Shown here one piece after another: positions 283-22,933 of a DNA stretch of 64,000 nucleotides (the first letter of the stretch is position 1; the number at the start of each line of letters is the position of its first letter). Location: IMG/VR virus record IMGVR_UViG_2687453454_000003, positions 1-64,000 of that record; one strand, 5' to 3'. The notes under the pieces were generated by a model. That model saw only the letters and a list, made by a program, of their open reading frames with translations, made no database searches and was not told the origin of the DNA. A program made the translations under genes and the position numbers. Source of the stretch: a virus (Duplodnaviria; Heunggongvirae; Uroviricota; Caudoviricetes).

Positions 283-317
283 TTCTGCCTCTCAGATTAT
301 ATAGATAAGCAAAAAGG

Positions 318-956: not shown

Positions 957-1142
957 ATGCGCCTTATCAAATTAAGCGAAGTCATGCTCAGAACGGGCTT
1001 CAAGAAAACGGCAATCTACTCATGGGTTAAGACGGGCACGTTTCCACAGCCAGTTAAAATTGGTAGATCAGCTAGATGGTCGCTTGAGGAGGTTGAAGCT
1101 TGGATCCAGAACAAACTTGATTCGCGGGCTGGCAACCAATGA
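957..1142 (+). CDS. alpA: AlpA-family phage transcriptional regulator / excisionase-like DNA-binding protein
   Basis: 61 aa; LSEV..RTG.....Y..V..G.FP.PVKIG.R...W...EV..WI pattern typical of AlpA/Vis HTH proteins; paralog of 15197..15394. Confidence 0.7.
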   Translation: MRLIKLSEVMLRTGFKKTAIYSWVKTGTFPQPVKIGRSARWSLEEVEAWIQNKLDSRAGNQ

Positions 1143-2156: not shown

Positions 2157-2175
2157 AGCTAAAGGGAGGGTTGGT

Positions 2176-2526
2176 GTGAATGCTCAGGCTGTCATCATGG
2201 TTTTCCTTGGTCTGATTGTCGCAAAACTATATCCAGACTGGTGGAAAGGGGCATTAGCAACTGTCGCCATCTATTTGCTTTTATCCGTCGTTAAGCGATC
2301 GTTCGTTAAGACCGTAAATCAAGCAAAACGTTTCTCATTTAAGAATTTAATAAACTATATTACTGGGCTTATTTTTTGCCTTTCAATTTTGATCGCCTCA
2401 GCTTTTTTGCCCGTATCAATAGCTAATTTTTTTGGCGCACCATATGAGGTAGGTTATCTATTCTCTGTTTTTTGTCTTGTTCTTTCCCTTCTTTACCTAT
2501 GGATGAGAGCAAAGAACAAAAATTAG
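2176..2526 (+). CDS. small multi-pass membrane protein
   Basis: GTG start at 2176 preceded by AAGGGAGGG Shine-Dalgarno; hydrophobic stretches consistent with 3-4 TM helices; lies directly after the gp16-like gene. Confidence 0.4.
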   Translation: MNAQAVIMVFLGLIVAKLYPDWWKGALATVAIYLLLSVVKRSFVKTVNQAKRFSFKNLINYITGLIFCLSILIASAFLPVSIANFFGAPYEVGYLFSVFCLVLSLLYLWMRAKNKN

Positions 2527-2544
2527 CCATCCATGGCTAACCAG

Positions 2545-4649
2545 TTATTGAGCTTCTTTTTGTGATGCCTGTGCGACTCTGGTGAGCGATTGTGTGACCG
2601 TACTGATCGCTCTGTCATATGCTGTGCTACCTTTTGGCGTATTTGCCAGACGTAACAAGGCATTTCGTATAACAGGGCTTTCGTATGCCTTCGCTGCTCC
2701 GCCTACGGCACCAGCAGCAGGAACAACAAACGCAGCCGTTTTTAGCATCCCCGCTAATACTGCTGCGTTTATGATGCCACCACCAACTAACAATCCATAA
2801 AGCTGCTGACCATTTAAGTTTTGAACGTTCGCTTTTGCCGCGTGTCTTGTATCGTTGAGGTATTTAATAACGCCGTCCAGTTCCTTTCCATGTACGCCTT
2901 TAAAGAAAGTTGCTGATTGCTTCCTGTTCCGGTGTAACGCATTAATAAACTTCTCAACACTGATATTTCCAGACGGATCAGTCGCCTTATCTACAGCATT
3001 CTGAACTATGGCTGCTCGTGCGTTTTGCCTACCATTGTCATCCAGAAGCCTGTAAAGCTGAGAACGTTCTGATGGGCTTTGGCTAAAAACGAGTTTTGTT
3101 ACATCCTCAGGCGTGGCCTTGCCGCTGGCTATTGCCTTTTGAACGCGCGTTCTTCCCATCATGTCATTGAATTTAGACCATGAGCGATCAACCCTTGCCA
3201 TATTAATGGCTTCGTCTGCTCCAAGATTTTTGGCTACGGCTTTTTTCATATCCGCCGTATATGCCTTGTAGATAATATCGCTGGCTTTCTGGAGCGTATC
3301 TTTATCAACAGTGTCAGATGACGCCATAAATCGCTTTCGAAGATCGGTTCTGTTTTCCCTCGCCAGACGCAGGTCATTTGGTCCGCTGGTGATATCGTCT
3401 TTAAATTGCTGCAAGACTTTTACCGCGGCTCTATCCTGAGATTTGCCCGGGCGGCTTAACACGGCAATCTGATTGTCGATAGCTTTTACCGTGTTTGAGA
3501 GATCGACAGGGGTATCCCCCATAGCGTCAATTATGCGGTTATATCGCTTTCCTGCTGCCTCAATGAATTTTTGTTGCCCTTTAGTCGCAGATTCATAAAG
3601 CTGTTTATCAGAAATGCCACCCAGACCATCGCTAAATGTTCTGACTAAATTTTCTCGTGCTTGTTGTTGATTCAGCCGATTCTTACCGGTTCCAAAAAAA
3701 GAACTCTTTCGCCTAATGTCTGAGCCTGACTCTGCATAAAGGTTTTATCTTTCAGCATGTCACTGGTCATTAACGGCAGATTTCTTTCCGATGCAAAGTC
3801 GACAGCAGCCTTTGCTTCAGGCGACATATCACCACGAACAGCCCTCGAAACCGCACTCGCTGTATTTTCCAGCCCCTTACCAATACCACCAATGCCAGCA
3901 GAAATTACCGTTTGTAACGGATCAATATCTTCTCCACCAGCAAGGCTGGTGGCTCCCTGTAGTGCTAAATCTGTAGCTGCTGATTTTCCTATGGCACCAA
4001 GCACCGTTCCAGCCCTGCCCACTGGTGTAAACGCCAACGCATTAGCAAGAAACGAAGTCAGGTCTTGCGGTGATAAACCCGGCTTGTTCAGGGCATAATC
4101 ACCTGATGGCAGAGAAACGATAGTATTCCCCTTCTCATCCTGCCTTAATGTCGCCCCCATTCCCTGAAGAATCTTTTCCTGAGACGCGTCAGAGCCGAAA
4201 AGTTGAGACCATCCAGCCTTTAGGGCATCCATGCTTAGTGAGTTCAATTCTGGGGCAGAGGTGACATTTTGCAGTCTCTCCATCTCTGGAGTCATTCGGC
4301 TTTCGCCTGTTATAGCATCGCGCATCGCAGCCCCAAGACTGGCTCCCTGTTCTGCTGAACGCTCAAGCCCCTCTCTTTGCTGAGTAGCTAACTTTGCATA
4401 CCCTGACGCAAGAGAATTATCAGATGATGTATGTTGAATATTTTGAGTTGCTGATTGGGATCGGTCTATTTCATTCGTTGATGGTAGTGGATAGGCAGCA
4501 TAAAAAGCCTGCTTAGCCTGCTCTACACTTTCTCCGGCTTGCGGGGCAACGACTTCATTGAAGTATTGCTCCTGAGCCTGCGCTTTTTGTTCTGGTGCTA
4601 ACGCCTGATACTGTGGAGAGGCGATAACATCTTTCCATGCTTTAGCCAT
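2545..4649 (-). pseudogene. P22 gp16-like ejection protein, reading frame broken at an A7/T7 run (3694-3700)
   Basis: Two 325-aa ORFs (2545..3522, 3672..4649); the downstream frame stays open and protein-like upstream through the run (..RRKSSFFGTGKNRLNQQQ..), so one indel joins them into about 700 aa. Confidence 0.5.
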
Positions 4650-6070
4650 TAATCACCCCATAGTGAAGAAAAGTTACTGCTGGCTGCTGGCTGTGATACC
4701 TGCTCAGATTGCGGCAATGTCTGCGACGAAGAAGAAGTTCCTCTGTCAACTGCTGAAATAACCCGCAAAGCATCATAAGCTCGACCAGAAGCAGCTTTCA
4801 GCGAATTGAACTGGTTTTCCATCTTCCGGCGCTTGGTATCAATGGTTTTTGTGGAGTCGCCAGGCTGAGGGAAATACATTTGATAATATTTTGACATTTC
4901 AGCAGGTGCGATAGCTGCCCCTGTTTCCTGACGGAGTATTGCCATTATTGCGTCATTAGCATTAACAACGTATTGCTGCTCTGTTGGGCTGAGCGTTAAG
5001 TTAGCCAGCGTCCCATTACCCAAAGCATTATTAATGATCGCCACTCGCTGTGGGCTAAGCTGGTCTTTCAGTGTATCTATTGAATCAAGAGCATCCCTAA
5101 CCCTGTATGCAAATCCAGCAGCTTTTTTAGCCCCTTCTGGCGACTTTTCCATGATCTTTTGGGCTGTTGGCAAAGCTATTGGACGAAACCCATCTCCAGA
5201 TATTGGCTGGTTTAGTTTTCCCTGCTCTTCACTTCCGTCTGTGTAGTATTTTGTGACAGTGCCATCATCGTTTTCTCTAACACTCATTAATTTTTTGGCG
5301 TTTGTATTAATTCCAGCCGCTGCCGCAAATGCCGCCGCCCCCTCTGGATCCGCCTTTAACATTTGAGCGTACTGATTGTAATTCTGCATTGCTGCTGTTG
5401 GTGCATATGCTGACGTTAACGCATTTGCTCGGCTAATATCCTGCCCTCTCGCCTGAAGTGCTTCGCCAGCCTGATTGCTGCGGATTGTCTCTGCCAACTT
5501 GCCACGCTCAATATCCCGACCTTCCATTTGATCTTTGATATCGAAATACTTCTCATGACCGAGAGAAAACAGTGCCATACTACCAGCAAGCCGCTGGAAT
5601 CCCTGTGGATCATTAACATGCATTTCGGCAACAGACTCAGGAGAAATTCCCAAGCGACGCATTTCATCTTCGTTATCTGCTATGAATTTTCCAAATGCCC
5701 CAGTTCCGAGCGAAGATGCGATTTGAGCACTAGTCGCAAGATGACCAATAGAATTTCTCTGGTCGTCATCAATAAAGCCCATCCCTTTCTGAACGCTTTC
5801 AAATTCTTCTGGATACTCAGAAATAAGACTGCGCATTTTGTTTCTGTCTCCAGACTCAAAAGCCCCGGCATATGCTTTCTGAAACTCTGCTTTACGCTGT
5901 TGTTGACGTGCCTGCTGATTAATCTCAGCAACGCCTCTTAGCCCCTGTAGCGCCATTAAACCTACGTTTGGGTGCTGCTGATACTGCACAGGCTGAGGAA
6001 CGGAAGAACGAGGAGCATTATCATTTTGCGGTGCCATGCTAGGCAGCCCGCCAAGTTGCCATGTCGCCAT
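4649..6070 (-). CDS. P22 gp20-like ejection protein
   Basis: 473 aa (P22 gp20 is about 471 aa) and position between gp7-like and gp16-like genes; assignment from recollection. Confidence 0.5.
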   Translation of the reverse strand: MATWQLGGLPSMAPQNDNAPRSSVPQPVQYQQHPNVGLMALQGLRGVAEINQQARQQQRKAEFQKAYAGAFESGDRNKMRSLISEYPEEFESVQKGMGFIDDDQRNSIGHLATSAQIASSLGTGAFGKFIADNEDEMRRLGISPESVAEMHVNDPQGFQRLAGSMALFSLGHEKYFDIKDQMEGRDIERGKLAETIRSNQAGEALQARGQDISRANALTSAYAPTAAMQNYNQYAQMLKADPEGAAAFAAAAGINTNAKKLMSVRENDDGTVTKYYTDGSEEQGKLNQPISGDGFRPIALPTAQKIMEKSPEGAKKAAGFAYRVRDALDSIDTLKDQLSPQRVAIINNALGNGTLANLTLSPTEQQYVVNANDAIMAILRQETGAAIAPAEMSKYYQMYFPQPGDSTKTIDTKRRKMENQFNSLKAASGRAYDALRVISAVDRGTSSSSQTLPQSEQVSQPAASSNFSSLWGD

Positions 6071-6747
6071 TAGAATCCAAGCCCCCCAACAAGACCAATA
6101 AGCCCACCACCAATAGCCCCGGCGACATTACCTATACCCGGAACAACGGAACCAAGTTGCGCACCCGCTAAAGCGCCTGATGCCGCCCCACCAATACCAC
6201 GCGCAAGACTGGATGGCTGCTGCGCCTGACCTGCACGAATAGCGCCAAGCCCCTGCAAGAGTTGCCCGGTATTATTGGCGTAGTTTTGCCCTGCTGTTGC
6301 CTGCCCTGATGCCGCATTCATCCCGACATTTAGCAGGTTTCCATAATTTTGCATTTGCCCACTGAGCCAATTGTTATAAAGCATGGGCGCAATGGAAGAT
6401 AACTGGTTACTGGTAGCTGTTGAGCCAAGCCCCCCGGTAGCTTCTGCTGAGACAAGGTTCTGATAACGGGCCTGATCTGCCTGTGTTTTATATAAACCAG
6501 AACCAAAGAAATCATTCGCGGCTTTATTCTGCCCTTCCAGAGTCATCAGTCCTTGCAGTTGTTGTAAAGCAGGCAATCCGACTTCTGCATACGGCTTGAG
6601 ATTATTCATCACCGTATTCCACTGCTCGCGCTGCAAATCAATTGCCTGCTGCTGGGCCTTCGCCTGAGCTTTAGAGGCACCACCATCACCGCCTTTTTCG
6701 TATACGGCACGATTGAGATGTTTATGAGCTATATGGGTAATTAACAT
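6070..6747 (-). CDS. P22 gp7-like ejection protein
   Basis: 225 aa (P22 gp7 is about 229 aa); Gln/Ala/Gly-rich with glycine-rich hydrophobic C-terminus; gene order 14-7-20-16 as in P22. Confidence 0.5.
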   Translation of the reverse strand: MLITHIAHKHLNRAVYEKGGDGGASKAQAKAQQQAIDLQREQWNTVMNNLKPYAEVGLPALQQLQGLMTLEGQNKAANDFFGSGLYKTQADQARYQNLVSAEATGGLGSTATSNQLSSIAPMLYNNWLSGQMQNYGNLLNVGMNAASGQATAGQNYANNTGQLLQGLGAIRAGQAQQPSSLARGIGGAASGALAGAQLGSVVPGIGNVAGAIGGGLIGLVGGLGF

Positions 6748-7202
6748 TCGCTGAATTCCTTATATTGTTGCCGAGTTAACTGATAAAGCGTTACGCCGAC
6801 GGGTTTACCACATCTGATATAAGCATCATCAAGGTGACCAACACGGGTAGCGCCAAGCAAACGGATAATTGCCCGTCCATATTTCGTGGTGTCAGGAACC
6901 ATAGTGATGCTGTTAAGGAATGGTGAGTTTTCGAGAAGCCATTTGCAGAATAATCGATGCCCTTGCAGTGCATATTCACCACGGAATCCGGGGTCGTACA
7001 CCGCATGGCATTCAACAACGCTATGCCAGAAGTTACGCACTTCATGAACGCCAGCCAGCACTAATCCTTCGTAGATGCCGAGATATACCGCATCAGGCTT
7101 GATGTAGTACGTGTGCCCCGGCTCAACAATATTTTCGGTATTGCCTGGCTCGTTAAGAAAGGCCTGTAATCGCACAGGGTTATCAATAAATTTTAGTTCC
7201 AT
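6741..7202 (-). CDS. P22 gp14-like protein
   Basis: 153 aa ORF heading the ejection cassette; assignment by position. Confidence 0.4.
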   Translation of the reverse strand: MELKFIDNPVRLQAFLNEPGNTENIVEPGHTYYIKPDAVYLGIYEGLVLAGVHEVRNFWHSVVECHAVYDPGFRGEYALQGHRLFCKWLLENSPFLNSITMVPDTTKYGRAIIRLLGATRVGHLDDAYIRCGKPVGVTLYQLTRQQYKEFSEC

Positions 7203-7964: not shown

Positions 7965-10724
7965 TCATTCTTCAGATGAGTTATAATCTCCTGGCTGGTA
8001 ATTGAGTACATAAACGTTTATTTGTCGTCCCTGAATACGTGGTGATTTTCTTTGGTATCCACGACCGCTGTTTGGTGGGGTTAGCATCCCGGCTTTTTTC
8101 AACACTTCAGCAAACTGTTTTGCGTTGAAACCACATGCGATCTCCTTTTCAAATGTGGCCGGGAATGTGTAGAAAATCATTGGGCTTTCGTCATGTTCTC
8201 CACGCTGACGGTATCCGGCTAAATCTTTGATGGGCAAATCTGCCGGGCTGTATGGAAATGGTGCAAAACGGCTAAGCCCATAGGCATTAAGAAATGCCTC
8301 CGTTTGTTCAATAATCTGCTGATGTTCTTTGTTACCTGTGCCGAACTCGCGCAACCATGCGTTATAGCTGTGCTGTATCGCATCACGGCATGTCTGAGCA
8401 TCCCAGCCTGTTACAACCTCGCCTAACAGCAATGCGGCCTCCAGAATGGCAAATCGCGCGGCTACACGGTGAACCTGCTCACCATAATCGGATGGGATCA
8501 GGTTTCTCCATCTGCTTTCGCAATCACGAACGGTTTTAATAGCCTGTTGCTGGTGGTCTGCCAGCCATTTAATCCACTCACGCCCGGCTGCGCCGTGGTG
8601 ATGCTGGTAAGCGTCTTTCAGTGCGTCTGCGTGCTGTTTTCCGTTCTGGTAATCGTGAAAGCGTACTGCTTTACTCAACGGAATATTCAGCAGTCGCACC
8701 AGTTGCCCGGCTTTGGTTTTTCGCCCGGAAGTAGCGATAAATGTTTCTAAATCCATTTCTCCGGTGCTGATTGCCACTGTACGCCAGCGTTTTAGATCCC
8801 GGTTTCCACCATCTTTAGCGCCTTGCAGTTTCCCTACACCGTTAAATAACGCATAGGCAGACTGTGAAACGCTGACAGGATCAGCGCCCTGACCAACTTC
8901 ATCAAGCGGCATTAGTCCGTCATTGTGGGCGGCGGCCTCATTTGCCAGCCCCAGCGCGGTTCCGTACCACGTCAGCCGCAGTAAATCAGGGTTGCCGTAT
9001 AAGCTGCTCGCCACGTTTGCCGTGGTGGTCTTACCTGCGCTCGACTGCTCATAGAAATGAATGCCGAACCCGTCAGCGCCCACCAGCCCAATCAATGGCG
9101 CTGCCAGTGCTGCGCCGATCCCGGTCATCATTGAATAGTTACCAAAGGCCAGACGCGCCACGTTATCACGCCAGCTTTTCGCGCTCCCTGAGACGGTATA
9201 TCCGGCTGCGGCTGAGCTTCTCCCGCTGAACAGCACAGGATTTTCAGGTGTTCCGATGATTTCCCCATCAGGCATGATGTACGCTCCGCATTGCCATCCA
9301 GTGGCATGAGCAACACGCCACAATTCACGAGAGCCACTGCGTTGTAGCCAGTCTGCCAGTATTGCTCTGAGGCTGCTTTTGGTCGTGACATTTACCCCAC
9401 CAGCTTTAAGTGTGCGCCATCCTTCACGTTCACCAATATCAGCCAGTGGAATGGCAGCGGTTGTCGGCGTTTCAGAACCAAACGACAGCCAGCGAAGAAT
9501 GAGATACTGGTCTTTATCGTCTCTGCCAGTACCGATAACGCTTAACGGAGAACATAACCAGCTTTCGTTATTGATGATTTCTCCACTCTGGCTGTCAGCT
9601 CTCGGAGATACCCAATAAATACCATCCTCGCGGCTTTCTATTCTTGGTTTCAGTGGGTCGGTATCCATAACCTTAAAATCGCTTCCCTCAATGGTCTGTG
9701 GCTCCTGTTTCACGCCATTACCCTGTGGTTGGTACATTGACTTATTGAACGCTTCTGTGGCGCATTTAATGCCGTGTTTTTGGTGGTAATCATTCCAGTC
9801 TGCTTTGTGATCTGTCGGGGGTAATGCCACCCATCCAGAAACAGATAAAGCTGCTTTTTCTGCTGCTATTCTCCCCGTGTTTTGTCTTCCTTCGCTGTGG
9901 TCGTTATCCGCAGCAATGATGATTTGTGCTGAAGGAAATTTATCCCGCAGTACCTGGGCGACATATAACAGGTTCCCGGCATCAATCGCCGCCACTGTCA
10001 GCGCCTCTGGACGAATTAAATGGGCAGATAATGCCGTTGCCAGCCCTTCTGCGATTAAGATGCTCTGTGTTGTTTCTGGCGCGTTTATGGCGTGATATGC
10101 CCCCCGCTTTGCTGAACCTGTCAGGAGTCTTTTTTCACCATGTGATGTAATAGTCTGTGCTGCTGTGACTGCGCCGGATTTATCCACCAGCGCCAGCAAC
10201 AGAGATCCATCGGGCAACACGGGGAATGTAAAATCACCTACCCCTTTCGCAACCAGATAATCAGATTTGCCGTTTACAGCCTTTCTGCGCATGTCATCAA
10301 ACTGACGGGAAAACGTATCCCGTCTTTGTTGTTCGTCCTTCTCTGCCCTTTTCAGGCGCTCCTGTTCGCGTCGCTGGCGCTCGGTTTCCAGTTGTTCCCG
10401 TTTCTGGCTGGTGGCTTCTGGTGTTTCCGTTGTCCGGTAATCAATACCCAGAACATCAGCGGCAAGAAGCGCCGCCTCTGTTGTGTCGCAGTTATTTACG
10501 CGTTTAATTAAATCCAGCCCATCACCAGCGCCGCACTGATTACAGATGAAGCTACCGCGCCCGTTGTCATCGAACCGGAATCGATCTTTGCCCCCACATG
10601 CAGGGCAGGGAGCATGACGGCGCGGAGAGTCAGGGACATTTATGTTCAGGCAGCCCAGCACATGAGGCCAGTTGTTTTCAGACGCACTGATAACCTGACG
10701 GATAAGATCAATGTTTCGCATCAC
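7965..10724 (-). CDS. P4 alpha-like primase-helicase
   Basis: 919 aa; N-terminal zinc-binding CPACGG..FRFDD...FICNQCG; Walker A-like SSAGKTT and Walker B-like LMPLDEVGQ. Confidence 0.85.
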   Translation of the reverse strand: MMRNIDLIRQVISASENNWPHVLGCLNINVPDSPRRHAPCPACGGKDRFRFDDNGRGSFICNQCGAGDGLDLIKRVNNCDTTEAALLAADVLGIDYRTTETPEATSQKREQLETERQRREQERLKRAEKDEQQRRDTFSRQFDDMRRKAVNGKSDYLVAKGVGDFTFPVLPDGSLLLALVDKSGAVTAAQTITSHGEKRLLTGSAKRGAYHAINAPETTQSILIAEGLATALSAHLIRPEALTVAAIDAGNLLYVAQVLRDKFPSAQIIIAADNDHSEGRQNTGRIAAEKAALSVSGWVALPPTDHKADWNDYHQKHGIKCATEAFNKSMYQPQGNGVKQEPQTIEGSDFKVMDTDPLKPRIESREDGIYWVSPRADSQSGEIINNESWLCSPLSVIGTGRDDKDQYLILRWLSFGSETPTTAAIPLADIGEREGWRTLKAGGVNVTTKSSLRAILADWLQRSGSRELWRVAHATGWQCGAYIMPDGEIIGTPENPVLFSGRSSAAAGYTVSGSAKSWRDNVARLAFGNYSMMTGIGAALAAPLIGLVGADGFGIHFYEQSSAGKTTTANVASSLYGNPDLLRLTWYGTALGLANEAAAHNDGLMPLDEVGQGADPVSVSQSAYALFNGVGKLQGAKDGGNRDLKRWRTVAISTGEMDLETFIATSGRKTKAGQLVRLLNIPLSKAVRFHDYQNGKQHADALKDAYQHHHGAAGREWIKWLADHQQQAIKTVRDCESRWRNLIPSDYGEQVHRVAARFAILEAALLLGEVVTGWDAQTCRDAIQHSYNAWLREFGTGNKEHQQIIEQTEAFLNAYGLSRFAPFPYSPADLPIKDLAGYRQRGEHDESPMIFYTFPATFEKEIACGFNAKQFAEVLKKAGMLTPPNSGRGYQRKSPRIQGRQINVYVLNYQPGDYNSSEE

Positions 10725-12500: not shown

Positions 12501-12691
12501 TTTTCACCCCCAAGAATTACCAGCTCGGCACGGGCATCGTTAACCAAAGATGAGCACGCTTTAATCGCATCCACGACATCAGTAGCGTCCATTTCTTCAG
12601 CCGAAAGACTGACAGCAACCAGGACAGCCGCTGCTTGCTCGATTAATTGAAGTGCGGACGTAAGGCGAGGGGTATTAATTGAGTTATTCAT
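12497..12691 (-). CDS. hypothetical small protein
   Basis: ORF 12497..12748 trimmed to internal Met. Confidence 0.35.
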   Translation of the reverse strand: MNNSINTPRLTSALQLIEQAAAVLVAVSLSAEEMDATDVVDAIKACSSLVNDARAELVILGGEK

Positions 12692-12902
12692 TGGTTGCCC
12701 CCGTTTTTCCTGGCATTTCGCCACCTTCCAGCAGGAAATGAACGTCACGAACGGCGAGATCCAATATCGCGAGTAACGCCTTCAGTCTTTCGTCTCGTGA
12801 GGGAGAGTTGCTCACCAGAATGTCGTTAATCACTTCTGTCAGTGTGATGATCTGGCTTGTGCGTTCGAGGGGATCCATATGCACATCGTAGGTTTTAATC
12901 AT
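12684..12902 (-). CDS. hypothetical small protein (72 aa)
   Basis: C-terminal part of the 355-aa six-frame ORF; ATG at 12902 overlaps the stop of the upstream 64-aa gene. Confidence 0.35.
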   Translation of the reverse strand: MIKTYDVHMDPLERTSQIITLTEVINDILVSNSPSRDERLKALLAILDLAVRDVHFLLEGGEMPGKTGATNE

Positions 12903-13089
12903 GTGCCACCTCCATGCGGATACGACCAGCAAAAAAGCAGATGTGATCGCGCACCAGAGAACGGCGAGCATCGCGTTCAGACTCGGCAGCAATATGATGA
13001 ATTTTGGCGGTAATTGTCGGGCAATCGCGGCGAACTGCGGCGATAATCCAGATAAATTGCGGTTTTTGGGTAGGGGTAGTAGCCAGCAT
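12895..13089 (-). CDS. hypothetical small protein (64 aa)
   Basis: ATG at 13089 preceded by AGGAGG (13097-13102) with 7-nt spacing. Confidence 0.4.
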   Translation of the reverse strand: MLATTPTQKPQFIWIIAAVRRDCPTITAKIHHIAAESERDARRSLVRDHICFFAGRIRMEVAHD

Positions 13090-13291
13090 GTGGCAGCCTC
13101 CTTGTACTGGGAGTTCTTCCCACCACCGGAGCTGCGAAACTCGCTGGTGGTGGACTGAACAGAGTTCGCAGTACCGGCGTACAAGGAAACCGGCCAGCCT
13201 TTCGGCTGCCCTGTCCAGCCCACCATAATTTTGCAAGCGACGCGGATTATAACCGCATCACTGAAAAAAGTGTGAGTCTGGCTAACGGCAC

Positions 13292-13313
13292 AAAAAAAGA
13301 CGCTCGGCGCGTC
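13292..13313 (-). terminator. intrinsic terminator-like hairpin GACGC-GCCGA-GCGTC followed by T7
   Basis: Minus-strand stem-loop followed by seven U; sits in the leader upstream of the small-gene operon. Confidence 0.4.
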
Positions 13314-13744
13314 ATGTGTCGCCTCGTACATTTCCGGGCTGCGAAACCCGGCACCCGTTTTATGAGGTGCCTTATAACCATAAACCGTGTTGCCGCATAA
13401 CGGCAAGCTCTTTTTTATGGACTCCGAAAACTCACTATTGGAAGCACCAGATGCACAATACATCGCGCTCATTTCGTTAACGTCGCGCGTGTGGACGAAG
13501 GTTTTTGTGGAGTCACTACGCGAGCAGAGAAAGCCATCTACGACCAGAAATTCTCTGGCGCAGCCGCCGACCTTCTCAACGCTAACACCATCGACCGTAA
13601 TTTCTGACATAGTTAAGGCATCCGCTCCCACCACCAGAAAATGATAAACTTTGCTTGTATCTGCTGTATTAATGCCAGACTTTGCTGTCATATTGCTGGA
13701 TTTTGGCGACATACCAGCCAGTGAAAATATCTTCTTCTGGACGG

Positions 13745-13927
13745 TTAGCATTTGTTAACCTCCGCGAACTCCTTCATGAAGCGCGCCAGCGGTTGTACGC
13801 ATGGCGATTGATACCCGTCGCGATAAAACGTCACTCGGTTGTGAGACACGCTTTCGACAGTAACGAGTGCTCCGTGGGCATCCTTGTAGCGTTTTTGAGG
13901 TTGTGGTGTTCCTGTCGGCTTAAACAT
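13745..13927 (-). CDS. hypothetical small protein
   Basis: ORF 13745..14014 trimmed to Met at 13927, which overlaps the stop of the antirepressor gene. Confidence 0.3.
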   Translation of the reverse strand: MFKPTGTPQPQKRYKDAHGALVTVESVSHNRVTFYRDGYQSPCVQPLARFMKEFAEVNKC

Positions 13928-14765: not shown

Positions 14766-15197
14766 TTAAGCGGCGTTAAACGCGTCCGGGTAGAGTTTCA
14801 GAATGTCGGCAATTTCCTGCTGAGAAAGTCCGTTGTGATCATTTATGTTCGCAAGATGGTTAATATGAGTGATCACTTTCAGAACATCACCACGGCAGGA
14901 GAAACGGTAGCGAAGGTGTGTTCCGATACCATCAGGATTCTTTTCGTCGATACGCTCCAGAGTGATTCCAAGCTGGCGTTCTAACTCTGTTGCATAGTTA
15001 CGACCAGAAGACAGACGGCAGTAGCGAAGAATGTCATTTTCTGTCCATCCCTCTATACCAGTACGCAGCATATAGACTCTGGCACGATGCTTTTTCGGTG
15101 TGCGCTTTGGTGCTTGAAGGGATTTTGTAAGGGGCGTAACATCAGATACGCGAATATCTGAATTAGCCGCCTGTAATGGGCGGTTTTTCTTATTCAT
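14766..15197 (-). CDS. hypothetical protein (143 aa)
   Basis: ORF track; immediately downstream of alpA. Confidence 0.4.
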   Translation of the reverse strand: MNKKNRPLQAANSDIRVSDVTPLTKSLQAPKRTPKKHRARVYMLRTGIEGWTENDILRYCRLSSGRNYATELERQLGITLERIDEKNPDGIGTHLRYRFSCRGDVLKVITHINHLANINDHNGLSQQEIADILKLYPDAFNAA

Positions 15198-15394
15198 TAC
15201 GCTACCTCGCCACGCGACTCAGCGATGCGCTGATTAATCCATTCTTCAATTTCACTTTCAATAAACGCAATTGATCGGCTTCCAATCTTTACAGATTGAG
15301 GGAATCGCTGTTCTTTGATGAGCCGATAAATCCACGCTTTGCTGTAACCAGTACGGCGTTGAACCTCAGAAAGACGAATAAATGATTGAGACAT
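15197..15394 (-). CDS. alpA: AlpA-family phage transcriptional regulator
   Basis: 65 aa; LSEV.RRTGYSK.WIYRLIK...FP..VKIG.RS..F...E...WI pattern. Confidence 0.7.
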   Translation of the reverse strand: MSQSFIRLSEVQRRTGYSKAWIYRLIKEQRFPQSVKIGSRSIAFIESEIEEWINQRIAESRGEVA

Positions 15395-15512
15395 GTTTAC
15401 TCCTATATTCTGTCATCTTCTTTAATGGACATCAGTAGACAGAAAGGAGATTAAACAAACCGGTGAATGGGTGATAGCGGATAAAAATAAAATATTTTTT
15501 TGAGAAGATTAT

Positions 15513-15547
15513 CCGCTTTGAAATACACAGTAGCGTATTCAAAGCGG
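15513..15547 (-). terminator. 10-bp perfect inverted repeat CCGCTTTGAA-N15-TTCAAAGCGG (terminator of the cargo gene or operator of alpA)
   Basis: Direct reading; lies between the stop of 15592..16473 and the alpA start. Confidence 0.3.
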
Positions 15548-15591
15548 AAATCGCGAAATTTACTTAAAACGTTTATGTAGGATTTTGCTTG

Positions 15592-16473
15592 CTATAAATC
15601 TCTACTCATTAAATCAGATATTTTTATCAAGCTCATTTCTCTGTCTTTGTTTACATAAAGCTGAAGCAAGCGGGTGTATCTCTCGCTTATAGATTCAAGT
15701 GCAAAAGGCTTTATTGATTCCTTAATAGCCTGCGTATCTTTCGGATCATCACTAAAAACCAAGGCAGAAATCATCGGATTGCTCACTTCCTTACCTGACT
15801 TCTCACCCCAAATCAGCAGATCAACAATAGGTATCACTCTATTAGATATCAACTTCTGAAGGGTCTTTAATCCAATCCTTTTCTGAGCGACATGCTCTCT
15901 CTCTGGTACTTTTAACTCTTTTCGCCATAGAGGTAGAAGGTGAGTCAGGCTGGTAATAATTTCGTCATCAGTGGCGTCATCTAAATCTATAGAAACGAGT
16001 ATGATGTTAGGGGAACAATTACTTAGGTTTCCAGTAACACTCGCAAGCATAGCGTTTGCCTTGAGGTAGCAATCCTCTTCGTCTCTTTTAAAAAAGCCTT
16101 GATCTATCGATGAGAAAGAGTACATGGCCAGCTCTGAAAATGTTACTGGACTAACCCCCATAGCTGAAGATAATGAGGGAAGATCATCGTACTCATTTCT
16201 TAATGATGGGGCTTCATCATTTACTTTGCGAATAAATTCTTCGACCTCTTCCTCTTCTTCATTGAGAATGGTTAGGTTAGGATCGCCCGAAAAAATCCTT
16301 TCATATTTTATATCGTACTCTTCTTTGAATATAGCAGTGTCATCTTTTGCATGACGCAATAAAAAATCGCGCCACTCTAATTCTTGAATCAAGTCCGGCA
16401 AGGTTAAATCATTTAAAAATTCATAATTACTAATATCAAACCATGCTAAATCTTGTTTTTTGGCTCTCACCAT
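15592..16473 (-). CDS. hypothetical protein (293 aa), AT-rich cargo next to integrase
   Basis: ORF track; visibly lower GC than neighbours; acidic stretch EEEEEVEE; no recognisable motif. Confidence 0.5.
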   Translation of the reverse strand: MVRAKKQDLAWFDISNYEFLNDLTLPDLIQELEWRDFLLRHAKDDTAIFKEEYDIKYERIFSGDPNLTILNEEEEEVEEFIRKVNDEAPSLRNEYDDLPSLSSAMGVSPVTFSELAMYSFSSIDQGFFKRDEEDCYLKANAMLASVTGNLSNCSPNIILVSIDLDDATDDEIITSLTHLLPLWRKELKVPEREHVAQKRIGLKTLQKLISNRVIPIVDLLIWGEKSGKEVSNPMISALVFSDDPKDTQAIKESIKPFALESISERYTRLLQLYVNKDREMSLIKISDLMSRDL

Positions 16474-16615
16474 ACGCCACCCCGCGCCCCTAATTCTGAC
16501 GGCTATGCCAGCCCGTAGGGGTGTACGGGTTTTCGGGGATCAGCCTAGACATAGCCTATTCTTTGTTCGTCTACATAAGTCTACTACCATTGCTTAACAC
16601 GGTCTATTCATACAG

Positions 16616-17830
16616 TTAAGCTCGTTTCCCAAACGAACCATGAACAACGTTCTCCTCCTTCTCCAGCGCATCCATATAGTCGGCATACCATTGAAGCATC
16701 TCCCGCCTTCCATCCAGATATTGCGCATGGTTGTATGTGCCACGAATTGAGTTCTTATCAACGTGAGCGAGCTGCGTTTCTATCCACGCGGTGTTATAGC
16801 CCTGCTCATGCAAAATCGTGCTCATAGTGTGCCGGAACCCATGACCAGTTACACGTCCAGCGTAGCCAATGCGCTTAAACACTTGGTTTATGCTGGCCTC
16901 ACTCATTGTTTTCCTTGGATCATTGCGCCCGGGAAACATAAGAGGGTAATTGCCTGTTATTTCTCTAATCTTCCCAATAAGCGAAAGAGCCTGATCAGAC
17001 AATGGCACAATATGAGGCCGCCGCATTTTCATACGTGAAGCGGGTATCTCCCAGATAGCCTTGTTGAAATCAATTTCATCCCATAATGCGCCACGTAGTT
17101 CGCCAGTCCGCAAGCCGGTGATAATCAGTAGACGAGCCGCCATAACAACCAATGCGCTTCCTGAGTAACTGGACAATGCCTTGAAAAAATCAGGTAATTC
17201 TTTAGCTGTAAGGAAAGGGTAATGATTAGATTCATGGCCTTGCATCGCGCTAGTAAGGTCTGGTGCAGGGTTATACTCTGCGCGACCAGTGACTATTGCA
17301 TAGCGGAAAACTTCCCCGCACCGCTGCCTCACTTTTTTGGCTTTTTCTGTAGCACCGCGCCCCTCGATGCGCCGCAGCACATTCAGAAGTTCAAGTGGTT
17401 TGATTTCGGCGATTGGTTTTTTGCCAATGTAAGGGAACACATCTTTGTTGAAGGCTTCGAGGATGTCTGAAGCATAACCAGCAGACCATTTTTTTAATTT
17501 GCTGCTGTGCCACTCAAGGGCAATATCTTTGAAGGTGTTGTTTAACTGCGTTTCCCGGGCAATCTTTTCCTCTCGTTTCGCTTCCATCGGATCGATACCA
17601 CCAGCGATACCTCTTTTCGCATCTTCACGTTTTGCCCGAGCATCGGCTAGAGTAACCTCAGGATACACACCTAGTGCCAATAGCTTCTCTTTACCAGCTA
17701 CACGATATTTAAGTCGCCAGTATTTACCTCCATTAGGTTTTACCAAGAGATACAAACCGCCACCATCGGCCAGCTTGTAAGCCTTCTCTTTTGGCTTGGC
17801 TGTGTCTATTTGACGGGCATTGAGTTTCAC
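16616..17830 (-). CDS. int: tyrosine integrase, P4 family
   Basis: 404 aa; N-terminal arm-binding pattern (AKPKEKAYKLADGGGLYLLVKP.G.KYWRLKYR) and C-terminal catalytic region with GHGFRHT and YNHAQYLD.RR. Confidence 0.9.
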   Translation of the reverse strand: MKLNARQIDTAKPKEKAYKLADGGGLYLLVKPNGGKYWRLKYRVAGKEKLLALGVYPEVTLADARAKREDAKRGIAGGIDPMEAKREEKIARETQLNNTFKDIALEWHSSKLKKWSAGYASDILEAFNKDVFPYIGKKPIAEIKPLELLNVLRRIEGRGATEKAKKVRQRCGEVFRYAIVTGRAEYNPAPDLTSAMQGHESNHYPFLTAKELPDFFKALSSYSGSALVVMAARLLIITGLRTGELRGALWDEIDFNKAIWEIPASRMKMRRPHIVPLSDQALSLIGKIREITGNYPLMFPGRNDPRKTMSEASINQVFKRIGYAGRVTGHGFRHTMSTILHEQGYNTAWIETQLAHVDKNSIRGTYNHAQYLDGRREMLQWYADYMDALEKEENVVHGSFGKRA

Positions 17831-17978: not shown

Positions 17979-18000
17979 TTGGGGAGATGTTTGAATGGTG

Positions 18001-18048
18001 CCGATAATAGGAGTCGAACCTACGACCTTCGCATTACGAATTATAAGA
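18001..18048 (-). other. 46-bp att core: 3' portion (positions 31-76) of tRNA-Thr(CGU), not a complete tRNA
   Basis: Minus strand reads ATTCGTAATGCGAAGGTCGTAGGTTCGACTCCTATTATCGGCACCA: anticodon loop with CGT, T-arm GTAGG/TTCGACT/CCTAT, acceptor 3' strand and CCA; flanking sequence cannot form the 5' half. Confidence 0.7.
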
Positions 18049-18464: not shown

Positions 18465-21400
18465 TTATTTACTGTTTATCAATTGCAATAATGGGATCTC
18501 AGCTACATCACTAGGAATATAGGGGTCATCTTCTTTTAAATTAACCCCAATACAATCAACATCATTTAACCCAATTTCCCAAGCCCACCTAACATCTAAC
18601 GTACTCATTTCTATCCCTAAACTATCTCTTTGTGGATGCTCAGGAACAATATTTTTTAACATCGCATCACATCCAAGATAGAATTTTCCACAGGCCTGAT
18701 ACGCAGCAAGAAATCTTTCTAAATTGACGTTACTATCAGGAGTCATCGTATTAATTCTACTGATCATTGTCATTCTTTTAGTTAATGGCGTTGTCATCAT
18801 ATTTTCAGATATCAGCACTCTATAATGATTTGGGTTTTTAACTGAAATACCCTTGACAATACAAACCCGTAATCTGGCTTTACTATCTACCAAGCCTACT
18901 GATGATATAAGATCTTTAAAAATATCCTCACCTATATTGGGGTGTTTAAATAATAGATATAACCCTGGATAACACGATTTTAATTGAGCGAAGCCTACTC
19001 CTTGCCAGCGTGTTCTATCCCATAGACGAGGCTTGATTAGACTTTGTATTGAATAATCTTTATGCGTTATATTTTCGGAATTAAGTTCCTCTTCAGGCAT
19101 TATTCCTTTACCAGGTGTTGGAACATTTACATCCTCGATCTCCAACACTTTCGGAAATTCACTATCCCAGGGTTTATCTCTTAAAAGAGGGTAAGTTTTC
19201 TTTTCAGCACTGGTGGAATAAATTTTCTTAATTTGTTGATCAATATCATTTCCAAGAACATTTTCAATAGCTTTGATACAGGCACCGAAACTAATTGCTC
19301 TGTCAAATGCAGCATCTTCGAATATCATTCTTTCAATGTATTCTGTATTTTTTGTAAAAAATAACTCAGGGAGAAGATCAAATACTATTTTCTTGAATTC
19401 ATTAGTAATTTTTTGTTGAGCATCGACTCTAAATGAACTTGTTTCAAAACCATTGCAATTTATAGTAAGGTTTAGTTTTCCATTATTGCTATTTATTTCA
19501 TGTGATAAGGAGAAGTCATCTTCATCATCTGCTATTACTTCAATAATTAAAAATGCTTCTTTCAGATGGATGTTATCAATCGTACAAGTTGCAAAAGCAC
19601 TCTCTAAAAGCGCTAAGATACTAGTTGAAAACTCTATAAATGGTGACCGATTCGGAAAGTTAATTTCTATAGTGCATCCAAAAATAAAAGATGTATATAT
19701 TCCTCGTTTATCATAGTTATCTTTTATTCCTTTACTATTGAATCCAGCATCAAAGTCACGTATTTCTTGCAAGAAATCATTATGATCTTTATCGGCAGTA
19801 ACTTCATACTCATGTTCAAAATTTTCAATATAACCTAAAGCATATTTAAGACATCCAGATGATACAAAAAGACCTAATCTATCGAGTTCATCGGGAATAT
19901 TACTCTGTCGATTTATTCCATTTAGGTCAGTGTTCAAAATGAGTTGACTTATGTAAAAATCAACTTGCTGATTTTCTTTATCGCCGAACGAACTTTCACT
20001 GATATTTTGGTTAATTATTAAAAACAGTTCATACCATAAAAGAGCATGTGCTAATTTCCCTAGTTTTATTTCTGCCAGGCATAAACTATAATAAATCTCA
20101 GCCTGCTTTAATGATATCTCATCATACTTCCAGTAGTTATCTGTAATCAAAGAAGCGGATAGAAGCAAGCATGAACGTGAACTCCATAGCAACCCAATGG
20201 ATTCGTAAGCATAAGCAATAGCTTTTAATGCTAATATAAATTTATCTCGTGATTCCTCTTTATAGAGTGGTATAAATGATTTTCCTAAATACTTGATTGC
20301 CTGATAAGGGTGACCATTTTGAATCCTCTTTATACCTCTTCGTAGATTTAATAATGCCCCTTTAACTTCACCACCTCTAACAGCAGATTGCTCAGTCATA
20401 TAGTCTAATAAATTTTCATATGCATCTACCTCGAAAAAAATGTCATCCAGTTCGTTCAAAAGTTGGAAGTTCTTCTCAAAGGAATAGCCTATTAAATTCC
20501 CACTATTTTTAAAAATTTCATGTAACTCTTCAAATACAACCGAAGCATCTTCTACATCTGAAAACGTTGTCAATTTATAAATAGCTTTGTGAGTTCTCGC
20601 TGTGAGTGCATTACTGGGACGTGATTCATCGTCAGCTATCTCATCTAGTTTAGCAAGCATGTTACGTTCAATATTCTCAATATCGATTGTAGATGTTGCG
20701 TTGTTAAGTCTAATATAACTTTTATGAACGGTTACTAAATTTAAAACTTTCTCCCATTTTGAGGAATTAGTTGATGATGCAATACTTTCATATGCAAATT
20801 GAAGATTTTCTTCAAAGAGATTAAAATCTTCCATCCAAAAATGAGACTTCCAGGCATATTGATAATACGCATCTAGCAATTGTTGATTAGTCCCGAATTT
20901 CTTTGATATTTTTATAGCTCTTTCAAATAGACCTTGTGTTTCAATTAGTGGTTTCTCAAGTTCAGCGCTTAACTCTGCAATTTCTAAAAAAATATCCACC
21001 TGTTCATATGAAATTTCAGCAGGGTTTATTTTCTCTCTAATATACTCGGTTAACTCTTCATATTTTTTATGCTTTTTATAATCATTTTCTCCAAAAATAA
21101 CTTCTCTTTTATATTGCGTTGGAACTGACAATGAATCAATGGCCAATTGCTCAAAATTATTTTTGTAAATTTGATCTAATAGCCAATTAATATCTAATAT
21201 ACGAACATCTATTCCAGTTTTTGTTTTTAGTGTATCCTCAACCTCTGAACGAATATTGGACTTTGCAGACTGGTTCGTTACGCAAAATACTTTAGCATAC
21301 CCACGTTCTGTTTCTTTTATCTTAAGTACATCTTCATGGCATTTTTTCTTCCAGTCTTTACGTGTACTTACCGCAAAGGCCCAGCGTTCTCTATTTGATG

Positions 21401-21716
21401 CTTCATTAACGCCTTCGAACCAAAGAAGCTTATTCTGTTCTGAAACAGGGAATGTTTGTGTGTCAGTTTTACCATCCCCCCCTGCTACAGGGCCAGTTTG
21501 TTCAAGGAGATTAGGGCAAATTATTTTTTCACATATTTTTTTTGCAAAATCTTCGAATTGTAGTTCTTGATTTCTTGTATTTAGCGTAGAGAGGAAGTGT
21601 TCCAGTACAACTCTGTCTAAAGTACCAGTCTCTCTGATTGTTGAATCAGAAAATTTTTCAGGGCGACGGCGCCTTAGAAATTCTTTAGATGAAAATTTGG
21701 TTTTCTGTACATTCAT
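18465..21716 (-). CDS. large orphan protein (1083 aa), AT-rich; possible N-terminal Mrr-like nuclease motif plus long helical region
   Basis: Single uninterrupted ORF with low GC; GGDGKTD...EQNK near residue 80 loosely resembles the Mrr catalytic motif (D...QxK); no Walker A found. Confidence 0.6.
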   Translation of the reverse strand: MNVQKTKFSSKEFLRRRRPEKFSDSTIRETGTLDRVVLEHFLSTLNTRNQELQFEDFAKKICEKIICPNLLEQTGPVAGGDGKTDTQTFPVSEQNKLLWFEGVNEASNRERWAFAVSTRKDWKKKCHEDVLKIKETERGYAKVFCVTNQSAKSNIRSEVEDTLKTKTGIDVRILDINWLLDQIYKNNFEQLAIDSLSVPTQYKREVIFGENDYKKHKKYEELTEYIREKINPAEISYEQVDIFLEIAELSAELEKPLIETQGLFERAIKISKKFGTNQQLLDAYYQYAWKSHFWMEDFNLFEENLQFAYESIASSTNSSKWEKVLNLVTVHKSYIRLNNATSTIDIENIERNMLAKLDEIADDESRPSNALTARTHKAIYKLTTFSDVEDASVVFEELHEIFKNSGNLIGYSFEKNFQLLNELDDIFFEVDAYENLLDYMTEQSAVRGGEVKGALLNLRRGIKRIQNGHPYQAIKYLGKSFIPLYKEESRDKFILALKAIAYAYESIGLLWSSRSCLLLSASLITDNYWKYDEISLKQAEIYYSLCLAEIKLGKLAHALLWYELFLIINQNISESSFGDKENQQVDFYISQLILNTDLNGINRQSNIPDELDRLGLFVSSGCLKYALGYIENFEHEYEVTADKDHNDFLQEIRDFDAGFNSKGIKDNYDKRGIYTSFIFGCTIEINFPNRSPFIEFSTSILALLESAFATCTIDNIHLKEAFLIIEVIADDEDDFSLSHEINSNNGKLNLTINCNGFETSSFRVDAQQKITNEFKKIVFDLLPELFFTKNTEYIERMIFEDAAFDRAISFGACIKAIENVLGNDIDQQIKKIYSTSAEKKTYPLLRDKPWDSEFPKVLEIEDVNVPTPGKGIMPEEELNSENITHKDYSIQSLIKPRLWDRTRWQGVGFAQLKSCYPGLYLLFKHPNIGEDIFKDLISSVGLVDSKARLRVCIVKGISVKNPNHYRVLISENMMTTPLTKRMTMISRINTMTPDSNVNLERFLAAYQACGKFYLGCDAMLKNIVPEHPQRDSLGIEMSTLDVRWAWEIGLNDVDCIGVNLKEDDPYIPSDVAEIPLLQLINSK

Positions 21717-21778: not shown

Positions 21779-22030
21779 TCATACTGCCTTTTTTTGAAGA
21801 AAAAATTGCGGAAGTCTATTTCTAGACAAGCTATCTATGTATTCACTATACCACTGCATCATCTGTTGTCTCCCTTCCAAATACTGTGCATGATTGTAAG
21901 CCCCGAGAATAGCGTTCTTATCCACATGTGCAAGTTGTGTTTCGAAACATGCAGAGTTGAATCCTTCTTCGTGCAGAATGGTACTCATTGTGTGACGAAA
22001 ACCATGCCCCGTCAGCCTTCCTTTTTATCC
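21779..22030 (-). pseudogene. C-terminal remnant of a P4-family integrase
   Basis: Translation GRLTGHGFRHTMSTILHEEGF..LAHVDKNAILGAYNHAQYLEGRQQMMQWY aligns with the last 80 residues of the 404-aa integrase; no N-terminal part upstream. Confidence 0.6.
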
Positions 22031-22348
22031 TAATAGCTCAATTACCTGATTAATGCTTTCCTTTGAGATCGGCTTAGTACGATCATCACGTCCAATGAAT
22101 ACTATCGGATAGATGCACCTAATCTTATAACATCGTGTTTTCTATGTCCGTTCCTGGCACATAGCAGTCCTAGAGACAGTGGCGTAAAGTCATGGAGGAT
22201 CGGTGGGAGGAGGCGCTAATCCTTTCATACAAAAATATGTAAAATCAATAACGGCTGTAAATCATTCAATACTCGCACTATCGGAAGTTCACCAGCCAGC
22301 CGCAGCACGTTATTGCATACAACGTGTATGCGGCGTATCTCAAAACGA

Positions 22349-22933
22349 TTACTCCATTACAGGGACAGCAGGCCACTCAATATCCGGTGCTACTGATGTA
22401 TCAACACGGTTCAGCAATACCCGATACTTTTTCCAGGCTGCCAGCAACGAGATTTCTTCCTCCGTTGCGATTTCCAGATCTACAGCATCCTGAAGTGGCG
22501 CAATATGCTCACTGGCTACCTGCATCAGGCTGTTTTTTGTTTCTTCCGCCTCCCGGATCCGGAACAGTTTTTCTGCTTCTGCATCTTTCACCCAGGCTGT
22601 GCCGTTCCACTTCTGAAACTCCCCTTCCGGCGATAACCAGGTAACATTTTCCGGTAACGGACCGAGTTCAGAAATAAATAACTCGTCTCCTGACGCTACG
22701 TCATAAACCGTTTTACCCCGATGGTCTTCAACGAGATGCCACGATGCCTCATCACTGTTGAAAACAGCCACAAAGCCAGCAGGAATATCTGGTGGTGCAA
22801 TATCGGTACTGTTTGCTGGCAGACCTGTATGAGGCGGAATATATGCATCACCTTCACCAATAAATTCATTAGTTCCGGCCAGCAGATTATAAATTGTTAT
22901 GGTCCGTGGTTGTTCACTCATTCTGAATGCCAT
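22349..22933 (-). CDS. tfa: tail fiber assembly protein
   Basis: 194 aa (lambda Tfa is 194 aa); directly downstream of the side tail fiber gene. Confidence 0.85.

Follow-up and report, generated by a model that had tools for sequence, protein, structure and literature searches.

The described satellites closest to the locus studied here are the Gram-negative PICIs, for which a four-zone plan has been published (PMC10111431), and in particular EcCIMP1, an Escherichia coli PICI that resides at tRNA-Thr and is mobilised by the P22-like phage Kapi1 (PMC11773190). The att core given for EcCIMP1 is TCCTATTATC, and the element, which has a small ORF in the slot between int and alpA, depends on int and alpA for its excision and its transduction (PMC11773190). 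A second point of comparison is offered by the Vibrio PICMI satellites, where 25 of 35 subfamilies possess a gene placed between int and alpA, these genes belonging to 13 unrelated families, and such a gene is missing from three subfamilies (PMC10803314). One such gene, iolg, overlaps int by ATGA; in PICMI115 it is reported to be necessary for helper-induced excision, and its deletion was complemented only by int and iolg supplied jointly (PMC10803314). The published defence hotspot of P4 lies between int and psu, as Rousset et al. (2022) are cited in PMC10803314, and Gram-positive and Gram-negative PICIs have been contrasted (PMC6092414). How the Gram-negative islands are silenced, and how a helper phage activates their alpA, is an open question (PMC6092414, PMC10803314).

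The window analysed here is the whole stretch of 64,000 nucleotides, within which the locus comprises the following features.

17996..18047, minus strand: 3' fragment of tRNA-Thr bearing the att core at 18003-18012, the int-proximal end of the PICI.
16616..17830, minus strand: P4-family tyrosine integrase of 404 amino acids, with Arm-DNA-bind_3, Phage_int_M and Phage_integrase domains.
16488..16555, minus strand: int-alpA RNA motif (Rfam RF02996, cmscan), in the spacer between int and DUF6387.
15592..16473, minus strand: DUF6387 family gene, an ORF with an ATG start encoding 293 amino acids (Pfam PF19924), the same protein as RefSeq WP_000251023.1.
15395..15591, minus strand: DUF6387-alpA intergenic region, 33.5% GC, with a hairpin, a second inverted repeat and an AAAATC motif.
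15508..15552, minus strand: hairpin just 3' of the DUF6387 stop, a putative terminator-like insulator before alpA, without a U tract.
15197..15394, minus strand: alpA, 65 amino acids, Phage_AlpA (Pfam PF05930, E 8.9e-20).

Read from its attachment end, the element begins with the tRNA-Thr 3' fragment, int, the int-alpA RNA, DUF6387, alpA and a gene for a 143-residue protein, and continues with an AntA antirepressor, DUF4222, an 'ash family' ORF containing the C4 and isrK RNAs, and small ORFs. The distal part holds a TOPRIM-DUF927 primase, DUF2824 and P22-type ejection genes, with an IS66 element interrupting; PerC and, on the other strand, a second alpA-like gene are also present. This order was compiled from the RefSeq annotation of identical DNA (L001), Pfam scans and Rfam. 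The window has a single copy of the att core, which sits within the tRNA-Thr 3' fragment. Across the 64,000 nucleotides no complete tRNA was called, and the other end of the island lies beyond window position 1.

The layout fits the published four-zone plan, with an int-alpA zone, a Bro/AntA zone with C4 and isrK, a primase, a late zone and a tRNA-Thr site. Its integration site and att core are those of EcCIMP1, and int, alpA, the antirepressor, the primase, DUF2824/DNA-transfer genes, PerC and the second alpA-like gene are common to both elements. The two differ in the int-alpA interval, which in EcCIMP1 holds only the small ORF EcCIMP1_002, whereas the window element bears DUF6387, the int-alpA RNA and an alpA allele of its own (75% protein identity to the empty-slot type). 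Judged by gene content, the element is an EcCIMP1-like PICI and not a classic P4. The label 'P4-like satellite' given in the first-pass annotation is therefore only loosely right: a phage satellite it is, and the label is apt for the integrase and the immunity RNAs, but the gene set is that of an EcCIMP1-like PICI, and neither psu nor sid nor delta is listed in the RefSeq annotation of the identical DNA. The slot likewise resembles the P4 hotspot as an integrase-proximal polymorphic interval accompanied by a P4-family integrase and P4-type C4/isrK immunity RNAs. It differs in belonging to an element without annotated psu, sid or delta, and in having only three observed states in E. coli, with occupants in deep synteny with alpA and not an assortment of known defence systems.

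The gene between int and alpA had been described as an AT-rich orphan of 293 residues without a recognisable motif, directly downstream of a P4-family integrase. Its composition and position are as described: GC content is 38.0% (GC3 36%), the integrase gene having 47.6% and the window as a whole 48.4%, and the integrase, with its three-domain architecture, ends 142 nt upstream in the same orientation (int stop at 16616, DUF6387 start at 16473). An orphan it is not. Hmmscan gives a PF19924 (DUF6387) match of 132 bits (E 3.7e-38; gathering cut-off 28.9 bits) in which residues 5-269 align to profile positions 6-256 of 258, close to full length, and PHROG 23422, a family without assigned function, also matches. 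At E <= 1e-3, a profile search of 1.84 billion representative proteins returned 511 DUF6387 clusters (50% identity), nearly all of them single-domain proteins of 250-330 residues. When a homologue search was repeated with a broad profile, the proteins recovered were nearly all the same as before. A scan of contigs with back-translated patterns, which were narrow, gave only 6 loci.

The locus DNA is 100% identical in E. coli EC26 and is present in 96 of 5,426 complete E. coli genomes, and WP_000251023.1 is already annotated as 'DUF6387 family protein' in genomes of E. coli and E. albertii. Close homologues, with identities of 59-92%, were found in Yersinia, Pantoea, Pectobacterium, Enterobacter, Salmonella, Klebsiella, Providencia, Xenorhabdus and Morganella, and all close homologues carry PF19924. 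Among 50,697 phage records there was a single match, to a bacterial contig. Records labelled as plasmids gave only 5 matches, and the 4 examined comprised three island-like contexts and one short linear contig, the 3.7-kb OX345049.1, which was set aside. In the literature searched, DUF6387 is mentioned by only two papers, each time as a gene-table line, for ICEKp258.2 and a Serratia island. Gene and family are already catalogued, without an assigned function.

Structure prediction and remote homology, suggested as a check in the first-pass annotation, gave a confident model but no match to a solved fold. The AlphaFold2 model, built on a diverse 56-sequence alignment, is all-alpha (pLDDT 91.9, pTM 0.85). 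A sequence profile search of the PDB gave no match at E <= 10, and Foldseek of the model against viral structures gave none below E 0.9. Pfam and fold searches detected neither a helix-turn-helix (HTH) nor any other DNA-binding domain, searches of Pfam, NCBIfam, profiles and folds revealed no known effector domain and no catalytic one, there was no NCBIfam match, and no family of PADLOC-DB 2.0 matched at E <= 0.1. The protein has a pI of 4.6, its N-terminal two thirds being acidic and its C-terminal third basic (pI 9.0). Invariance across the broad family is confined to Y17 and R184, with W11, F12, R35, D169, L180, D218 and T253 nearly invariant, and these residues do not form an obvious catalytic set. 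The gene product is predicted to be a soluble all-alpha protein, and we conclude that its fold is without a solved relative and lacks any recognisable enzymatic or DNA-binding module.

What distinguishes the family is its neighbour. In the window the DUF6387 ORF lies 197 nt upstream of alpA (start at 15394) on the same strand, and a co-oriented alpA follows the DUF6387 stop at 76-204 nt in all 18 loci that have downstream sequence. The same order recurs in further loci of Klebsiella aerogenes, Morganella, Pantoea and Enterobacter, and the published gene tables of ICEKp258.2 and the Serratia island give the same pair. In all, the two genes were neighbours, with no exception, in about 20 distinct contexts that span Escherichia to Psychrobacter. 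It includes homologues 28% identical in Gilliamella and in Salmonella houtenae, homologues 24-27% identical in RepL/H-NS-type islands of Klebsiella and E. coli, and Psychrobacter satellites with Toprim_3, DUF3987 and Terminase_2 genes. The replication modules that accompany the pair differ, being TOPRIM-DUF927, Toprim_3 with DUF3987, or D5_N/DUF5906, or those of the RepL/H-NS islands. This strict linkage appears undescribed.

The upstream side varies more. A co-oriented P4-family int precedes DUF6387 in most loci at gaps of -4 to 332 nt: the Klebsiella homologue of L014 overlaps the int stop by 4 nt, the four Psychrobacter loci L016-L019 have gaps of 25-50 nt, and two islands (L013 and L015) have no co-oriented integrase ahead of DUF6387. 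Extra DNA separates int from DUF6387 in two loci. In Gilliamella the products of this insert are a gp3-like packaging protein and the toxin-antitoxin pair RnlA/RnlB, and DUF6387 still adjoins alpA despite this cargo; the Gilliamella cargo site lies upstream of DUF6387, and for this element family the evidence points to the interval between int and DUF6387 as the site of real cargo.

This pattern, taken with the absence of the family from phage genomes and of any PADLOC match, fits a component of an integration/regulation module, not a shuffled defence gene. The reading we prefer is that DUF6387 is an accessory component of the Int-AlpA integration/regulation module of AlpA-type satellites and related islands and not exchangeable defence cargo, and to this we give an even chance. 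Low GC and presence/absence polymorphism are also typical of accessory cargo and count against it.

The slot does vary, though in a restricted way. At a coverage of at least 80%, the backbone of alpA, the 143-residue gene and antA is found in 612 E. coli genomes and the integrase type of the window in 505. The int-alpA slot holds DUF6387 in 96 genomes, an unrelated protein of about 293 residues ('family B') in 24, and, most commonly, a 427-bp non-coding spacer in 281. These three states were the only ones among the 5,426 E. coli genomes. The spacer also occurs in a longer, repeat-containing form. The first-pass annotation had set conservation as a core gene in all related elements against its proposal of variable cargo, and DUF6387 is missing from many related E. 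coli elements; it is not a universal core gene of these elements. EcCIMP1 is experimentally functional without it, so that DUF6387 is dispensable for the basic PICI cycle. This counts against the accessory-component reading, as do the empty slot being the commonest state and the lack of any visible interaction or DNA-binding domain.

To the first-pass annotation the position next to the integrase of a P4-like satellite had suggested a hotspot for variable defence cargo, and one rival reading accordingly makes DUF6387 a single-gene anti-phage, anti-satellite or superinfection-exclusion cargo of an integrase-proximal hotspot. The variable slot itself is well founded: it is polymorphic among near-identical backbones, its gene is AT-rich relative to its neighbours, and it can carry an unrelated protein of like size. 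Satellites are known carriers of defence genes (PMC10803314), and EcCIMP1-type PICIs give superinfection immunity without a recognisable defence system (PMC11773190), although in EcCIMP1 this immunity occurs in an element without DUF6387. The defence function itself finds no support, as the gene is locked to alpA, matches nothing in PADLOC, has no catalytic or known effector domain and is absent from phage genomes. Turnover, with reappearance elsewhere, is typical of hotspot cargo. DUF6387 was never found away from alpA in its roughly 20 contexts, with synteny holding down to 24-28% identity, and the varied contexts and many replacing systems of a defence hotspot were not what we found. Where recognisable cargo does occur, as the toxin-antitoxin pair of Gilliamella, it sits beside DUF6387 and not in its place. 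We consider defence cargo unlikely.

Comparison of individual loci shows what moves together with the gene. The window differs from an empty-slot locus (L009) over 15386-16639, a segment that runs from the final bases of int through the RNA motif, DUF6387 and the entire region upstream of alpA into the first bases of alpA, so that the alpA upstream region has been swapped along with DUF6387. A second locus, L010 from strain CX04, has a backbone of the 143-residue gene and antA that is 98.6% identical to that of the window, but its int and slot gene are different, and so is its AlpA (28% identical). Counted from the alpA stop (15197), the breakpoint lies 10 nt into the gene, at about 15207; a single block of int, slot gene and alpA has therefore been exchanged.

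The region that travels with DUF6387, and which presumably contains the alpA promoter (15395..15591), includes the hairpin. The perfect 10-bp inverted repeat reported here by the first-pass annotation exists and is slightly longer than claimed, with arms of 11 nt at 15512-15522 and 15538-15548 that are 100% complementary and separated by 15 nt. Folded as coding-strand RNA, it becomes a longer, bulged stem of roughly 20 bp whose dG is -24.9 kcal/mol (z = -6.5 against dinucleotide shuffles, 0 of 200 of which folded as well). The window hairpin is followed by UAAUCUUCUC, with no U tract, and the terminator scan made no intrinsic-terminator call; a canonical terminator is not upheld here. T7 runs do follow the orthologous hairpins of Salmonella (L021), which has the stem CGCTTTGAA in common with the window hairpin, and of Yokenella (L006). 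Hairpins of differing sequence recur at the same place after the DUF6387 stop in other loci, which is consistent with a role in shielding alpA from read-through. A second inverted repeat, AGCGGATAA/TTATCCGCT, lies at 15476-15484 and 15509-15517. Just after the DUF6387 stop codon of the window there is an AAAATC motif; of 13 non-redundant loci, 7 have it within 60 nt after the stop, where 0.89 would be expected. Similar hairpin and AAAATC-like sequences are found after the unrelated family-B gene too, and for this reason such cis elements may belong to the alpA control region rather than to DUF6387.

In a more specific form of the regulatory reading, DUF6387 would be an Stl-like master repressor or helper-phage sensor that binds operators between DUF6387 and alpA and silences alpA until a helper-phage protein inactivates it. 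Stl repressors of SaPIs, the pathogenicity islands of Gram-positive bacteria, are diverse, highly variable between islands, helical, and adjoin the switch region. DUF6387 is likewise an integrase-adjacent protein of roughly 250-300 residues, directly upstream of alpA, and its C-terminal third is basic; the sequence ahead of alpA moves together with the gene, the intergenic region contains inverted repeats and the over-represented AAAATC motif, and the non-homologous alternatives in the slot recall the diversity of Stl. It has, however, no HTH or other DNA-binding domain detectable by Pfam or fold search, it is dispensable in relatives, and it is co-oriented with alpA, whereas stl is divergent. 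The cis elements, being found after the family-B gene as well, are perhaps alpA's own, and PICIs with an empty slot still hold alpA off and are phage-inducible (PMC11773190). On balance an Stl-like role seems improbable.

On the integrase side the int-alpA RNA motif matches RF02996 over model positions 1-71 of 71 with a cmscan score of 46.7 bits (gathering 35.8). A gap of 14 nt separates its 3' end from the ATG of DUF6387, and in each of 12 matches among the loci compared it ends 13-20 nt upstream of the start codon of the slot gene. The motif precedes both unrelated slot families, DUF6387 and family B, and was absent from the empty-slot loci compared; some DUF6387 loci have no match above threshold. 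Given this spacing and the absence from empty slots, the int-alpA RNA looks like a 5' leader of the slot gene. The minimum free energy fold of the leader region is no stabler than shuffles (z = 0.06), so that support for the RNA motif comes from the Rfam covariance model and not from folding energy. A scan called no minus-strand promoter-like or terminator-like site in the spacer (16474-16615), and int and DUF6387 are probably co-transcribed.

Family B has no Pfam match. The 293-residue slot protein of L010 was considered as a divergent DUF6387 and rejected: BLASTP found nothing, and the profile-profile probability between family B and DUF6387 is 0.3%. YfjH, encoded between intA and alpA of the K-12 prophage CP4-57, was also rejected as a homologue (hhalign 0.4%, no Pfam family, opposite strand). 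In Yersinia and in Neptunomonas (25% identity) family B shows the order int, B, about 105 nt, alpA. The AlpAs found beside family B form a clade of their own, 17-28% identical to the window AlpA. Those beside DUF6387 mostly cluster, with the empty-slot AlpAs (75% identical) nested among them. That AlpA clades follow the slot gene suggests that slot protein and AlpA type co-vary, and the nesting of the empty-slot AlpAs within the DUF6387-type clade suggests that empty slots arose by loss. A non-homologous slot alternative with its own AlpA clade, and the int-alpA RNA as a leader, appear undescribed.

That DUF6387 is a host-adaptive or selfish passenger hitch-hiking in a permissive int-operon site would accord with its dispensability in close relatives and with a sequence and fold that give no functional clue, but co-variation with the AlpA clade would be unexpected for a passenger, as would an exact position and orientation to alpA kept across Enterobacterales, Orbaceae and Moraxellaceae as the flanking modules change, and we judge this reading improbable too.

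If DUF6387 is an accessory component of the Int-AlpA module, its action might be pictured as follows. In the quiescent island DUF6387 would be transcribed together with int, on a message whose leader contains the int-alpA RNA, and the strong hairpin would stop or insulate this transcript ahead of the helper-phage-inducible alpA promoter. The DUF6387 protein would then act on the AlpA-dependent switch, in the version we prefer as a third partner of Int and AlpA at excision; in an alternative version it would be a gatekeeper of alpA expression or AlpA activity. The excision-partner version follows the role proposed for the positionally equivalent iolg of Vibrio PICMI, a precedent that is not airtight, since the complementation was obtained with int and iolg jointly.

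DUF6387 occupies the position that defines the iolg/icg (integrase-overlapping or integrase-contiguous) genes of PICMI satellites, which encode proteins of unassigned function, share the orientation of the int and alpA that flank them, and adjoin or overlap int. Family B repeats this pattern along with DUF6387, in Enterobacterales and beyond. Like the PICMI genes, DUF6387 is found in only part of the related elements, in a position filled by several unrelated families, and its Klebsiella homologue has a 4-nt overlap with int. The likeness is one of position. A difference is that the window DUF6387 is separated from int by 142 nt with a structured RNA motif between, and another is that its constant neighbour is alpA rather than int, as L013 and L015 illustrate. 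Extending the Int-AlpA module reading, DUF6387 and family B might be alternative, non-homologous AlpA partners in a helper-phage-responsive excision/induction switch of Gram-negative satellites and related islands, with the int-alpA RNA serving in cis as their 5' leader and not as an sRNA in its own right; this wider proposal we put forward tentatively and regard as doubtful.

The locus would not startle a specialist. It does carry a lesson for annotation, in that AT-rich genes of unassigned function adjacent to the integrase of a satellite should not be presumed to be defence genes, although, were the defence reading to prove right, DUF6387 would be a new single-gene defence system. As a protein locked to alpA across gammaproteobacterial orders, DUF6387 is a concrete and cheaply testable candidate for the PICI switch, and its family-B stand-in and the conserved leader RNA motif are candidates likewise. 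If the AlpA-partner reading is true, missing parts of the PICI switch would have been identified.

The interval between int and alpA, which holds the DUF6387 gene in the window satellite (PICI), carries a catalogued RNA motif ahead of its gene and, in other elements, a second family of coding sequence:

Window 16488-16555, minus strand: int-alpA RNA motif (Rfam RF02996, typed 'sRNA')
L010 (E. coli CX04) 8602-9483, minus strand: family B gene
L024 4001-4876: family B gene
L026 4001-4996: family B gene

Family B comprises Pfam-less proteins of approximately 291-331 amino acids, encoded in a position identical to that of DUF6387; 24 E. coli genomes carry the family, as do many Enterobacterales. 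No relationship between DUF6387 and family B was detectable, and the AlpA partners of family B form a separate AlpA clade. The RF02996 motif is also present in comparison loci L002-L005, L010, L020, L024, L026, L028, L030 and L031, and in loci with the motif the start codon of the ~290-residue gene lies, without exception, 13-20 nt past its 3' end. This spacing holds whichever of the two unrelated families supplies the gene, and in hosts ranging from E. coli to Neptunomonas. The motif was absent from those comparison loci in which the interval is non-coding. RF02996 may function as a leader in cis and not as a free sRNA.

Two such 'empty' spacers are built of repeats:

L009 8482-8908: int-alpA spacer, E. 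coli element
L011 8469-9119: int-alpA spacer

Each is made up of several copies of one unit, a short hairpin with a (G/T)CTCTTTAA-like sequence after it, and the copy number is higher in L011 than in L009. The repeats are candidate binding sites or a candidate miniature repeat. A recurrent short motif lies on the alpA side of DUF6387:

Window 15476-15591, minus strand: AAAATC-motif region, with equivalents in L003, L004, L006, L014, L016, L019 and L020

An AAAATC-containing motif lies within 60 nt past the DUF6387 stop codon in 7 of 13 loci (0.89 expected) and often belongs to a short palindrome (AAAATC-CA-GATTTT in L020). The window also has a second inverted repeat here, AGCGGATAA/TTATCCGCT (15476-15484 / 15509-15517), part of which falls within the hairpin. 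Motif and repeat are possible operators of the alpA control region.

In Gilliamella the int-proximal side of the gene is itself occupied:

L007 (Gilliamella sp. Choc4-2) 2673-5806: int-to-DUF6387 interval

This interval encodes a gp3-like DNA-packaging protein, a 123-residue ORF and an RnlA/RnlB toxin-antitoxin pair, which identifies the junction between int and DUF6387 as the true site of cargo insertion in that element.

Elsewhere in the window PICI are the following:

1-7202: late zone, with P22-type DNA-ejection/injection genes and a DUF2824 gene
12684-13751, minus strand: 355-residue ORF annotated 'ash family protein'
13143-13230, minus strand: C4 antisense RNA
13293-13370, minus strand: isrK RNA

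The late zone is split by an IS66-family element (RefSeq annotation of identical DNA). Its gene content is consistent with a P22-like helper, as for EcCIMP1. Because both RNAs (P4 CI/seqA-type immunity RNAs) are nested in the 'ash family' ORF, some of its annotation may be spurious or dual-use, by analogy with P4 eta/kil.

At the int-proximal end of the PICI and beyond it lie the following:

17996-18047, minus strand: tRNA-Thr 3' part, from the anticodon loop onward, adjoining int
18465-21716, minus strand: very AT-rich 1083-residue ORF (33% GC, GC3 24%)
22392-22590, minus strand: Rfam IS009 RNA (full-length match, 222 bits)

The IS009 match overlaps a tail-fibre-assembly gene of the neighbouring lambdoid prophage. 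The att core TCCTATTATC (18003-18012) lies within the tRNA-Thr sequence. As only the 3' part of this tRNA stands beside int, and an ARAGORN scan of the window called none, the PICI appears to lie among islands and a prophage arranged in tandem, not directly at the intact thrW gene. The 1083-residue ORF, flanked by the PICI-terminating tRNA-Thr fragment and a truncated integrase (21779-22111), is a remnant of an adjacent island. It had no credible match in Pfam, PADLOC, PHROG or NCBIfam, and, compared with the DUF6387 gene, makes a stronger unknown-cargo candidate.
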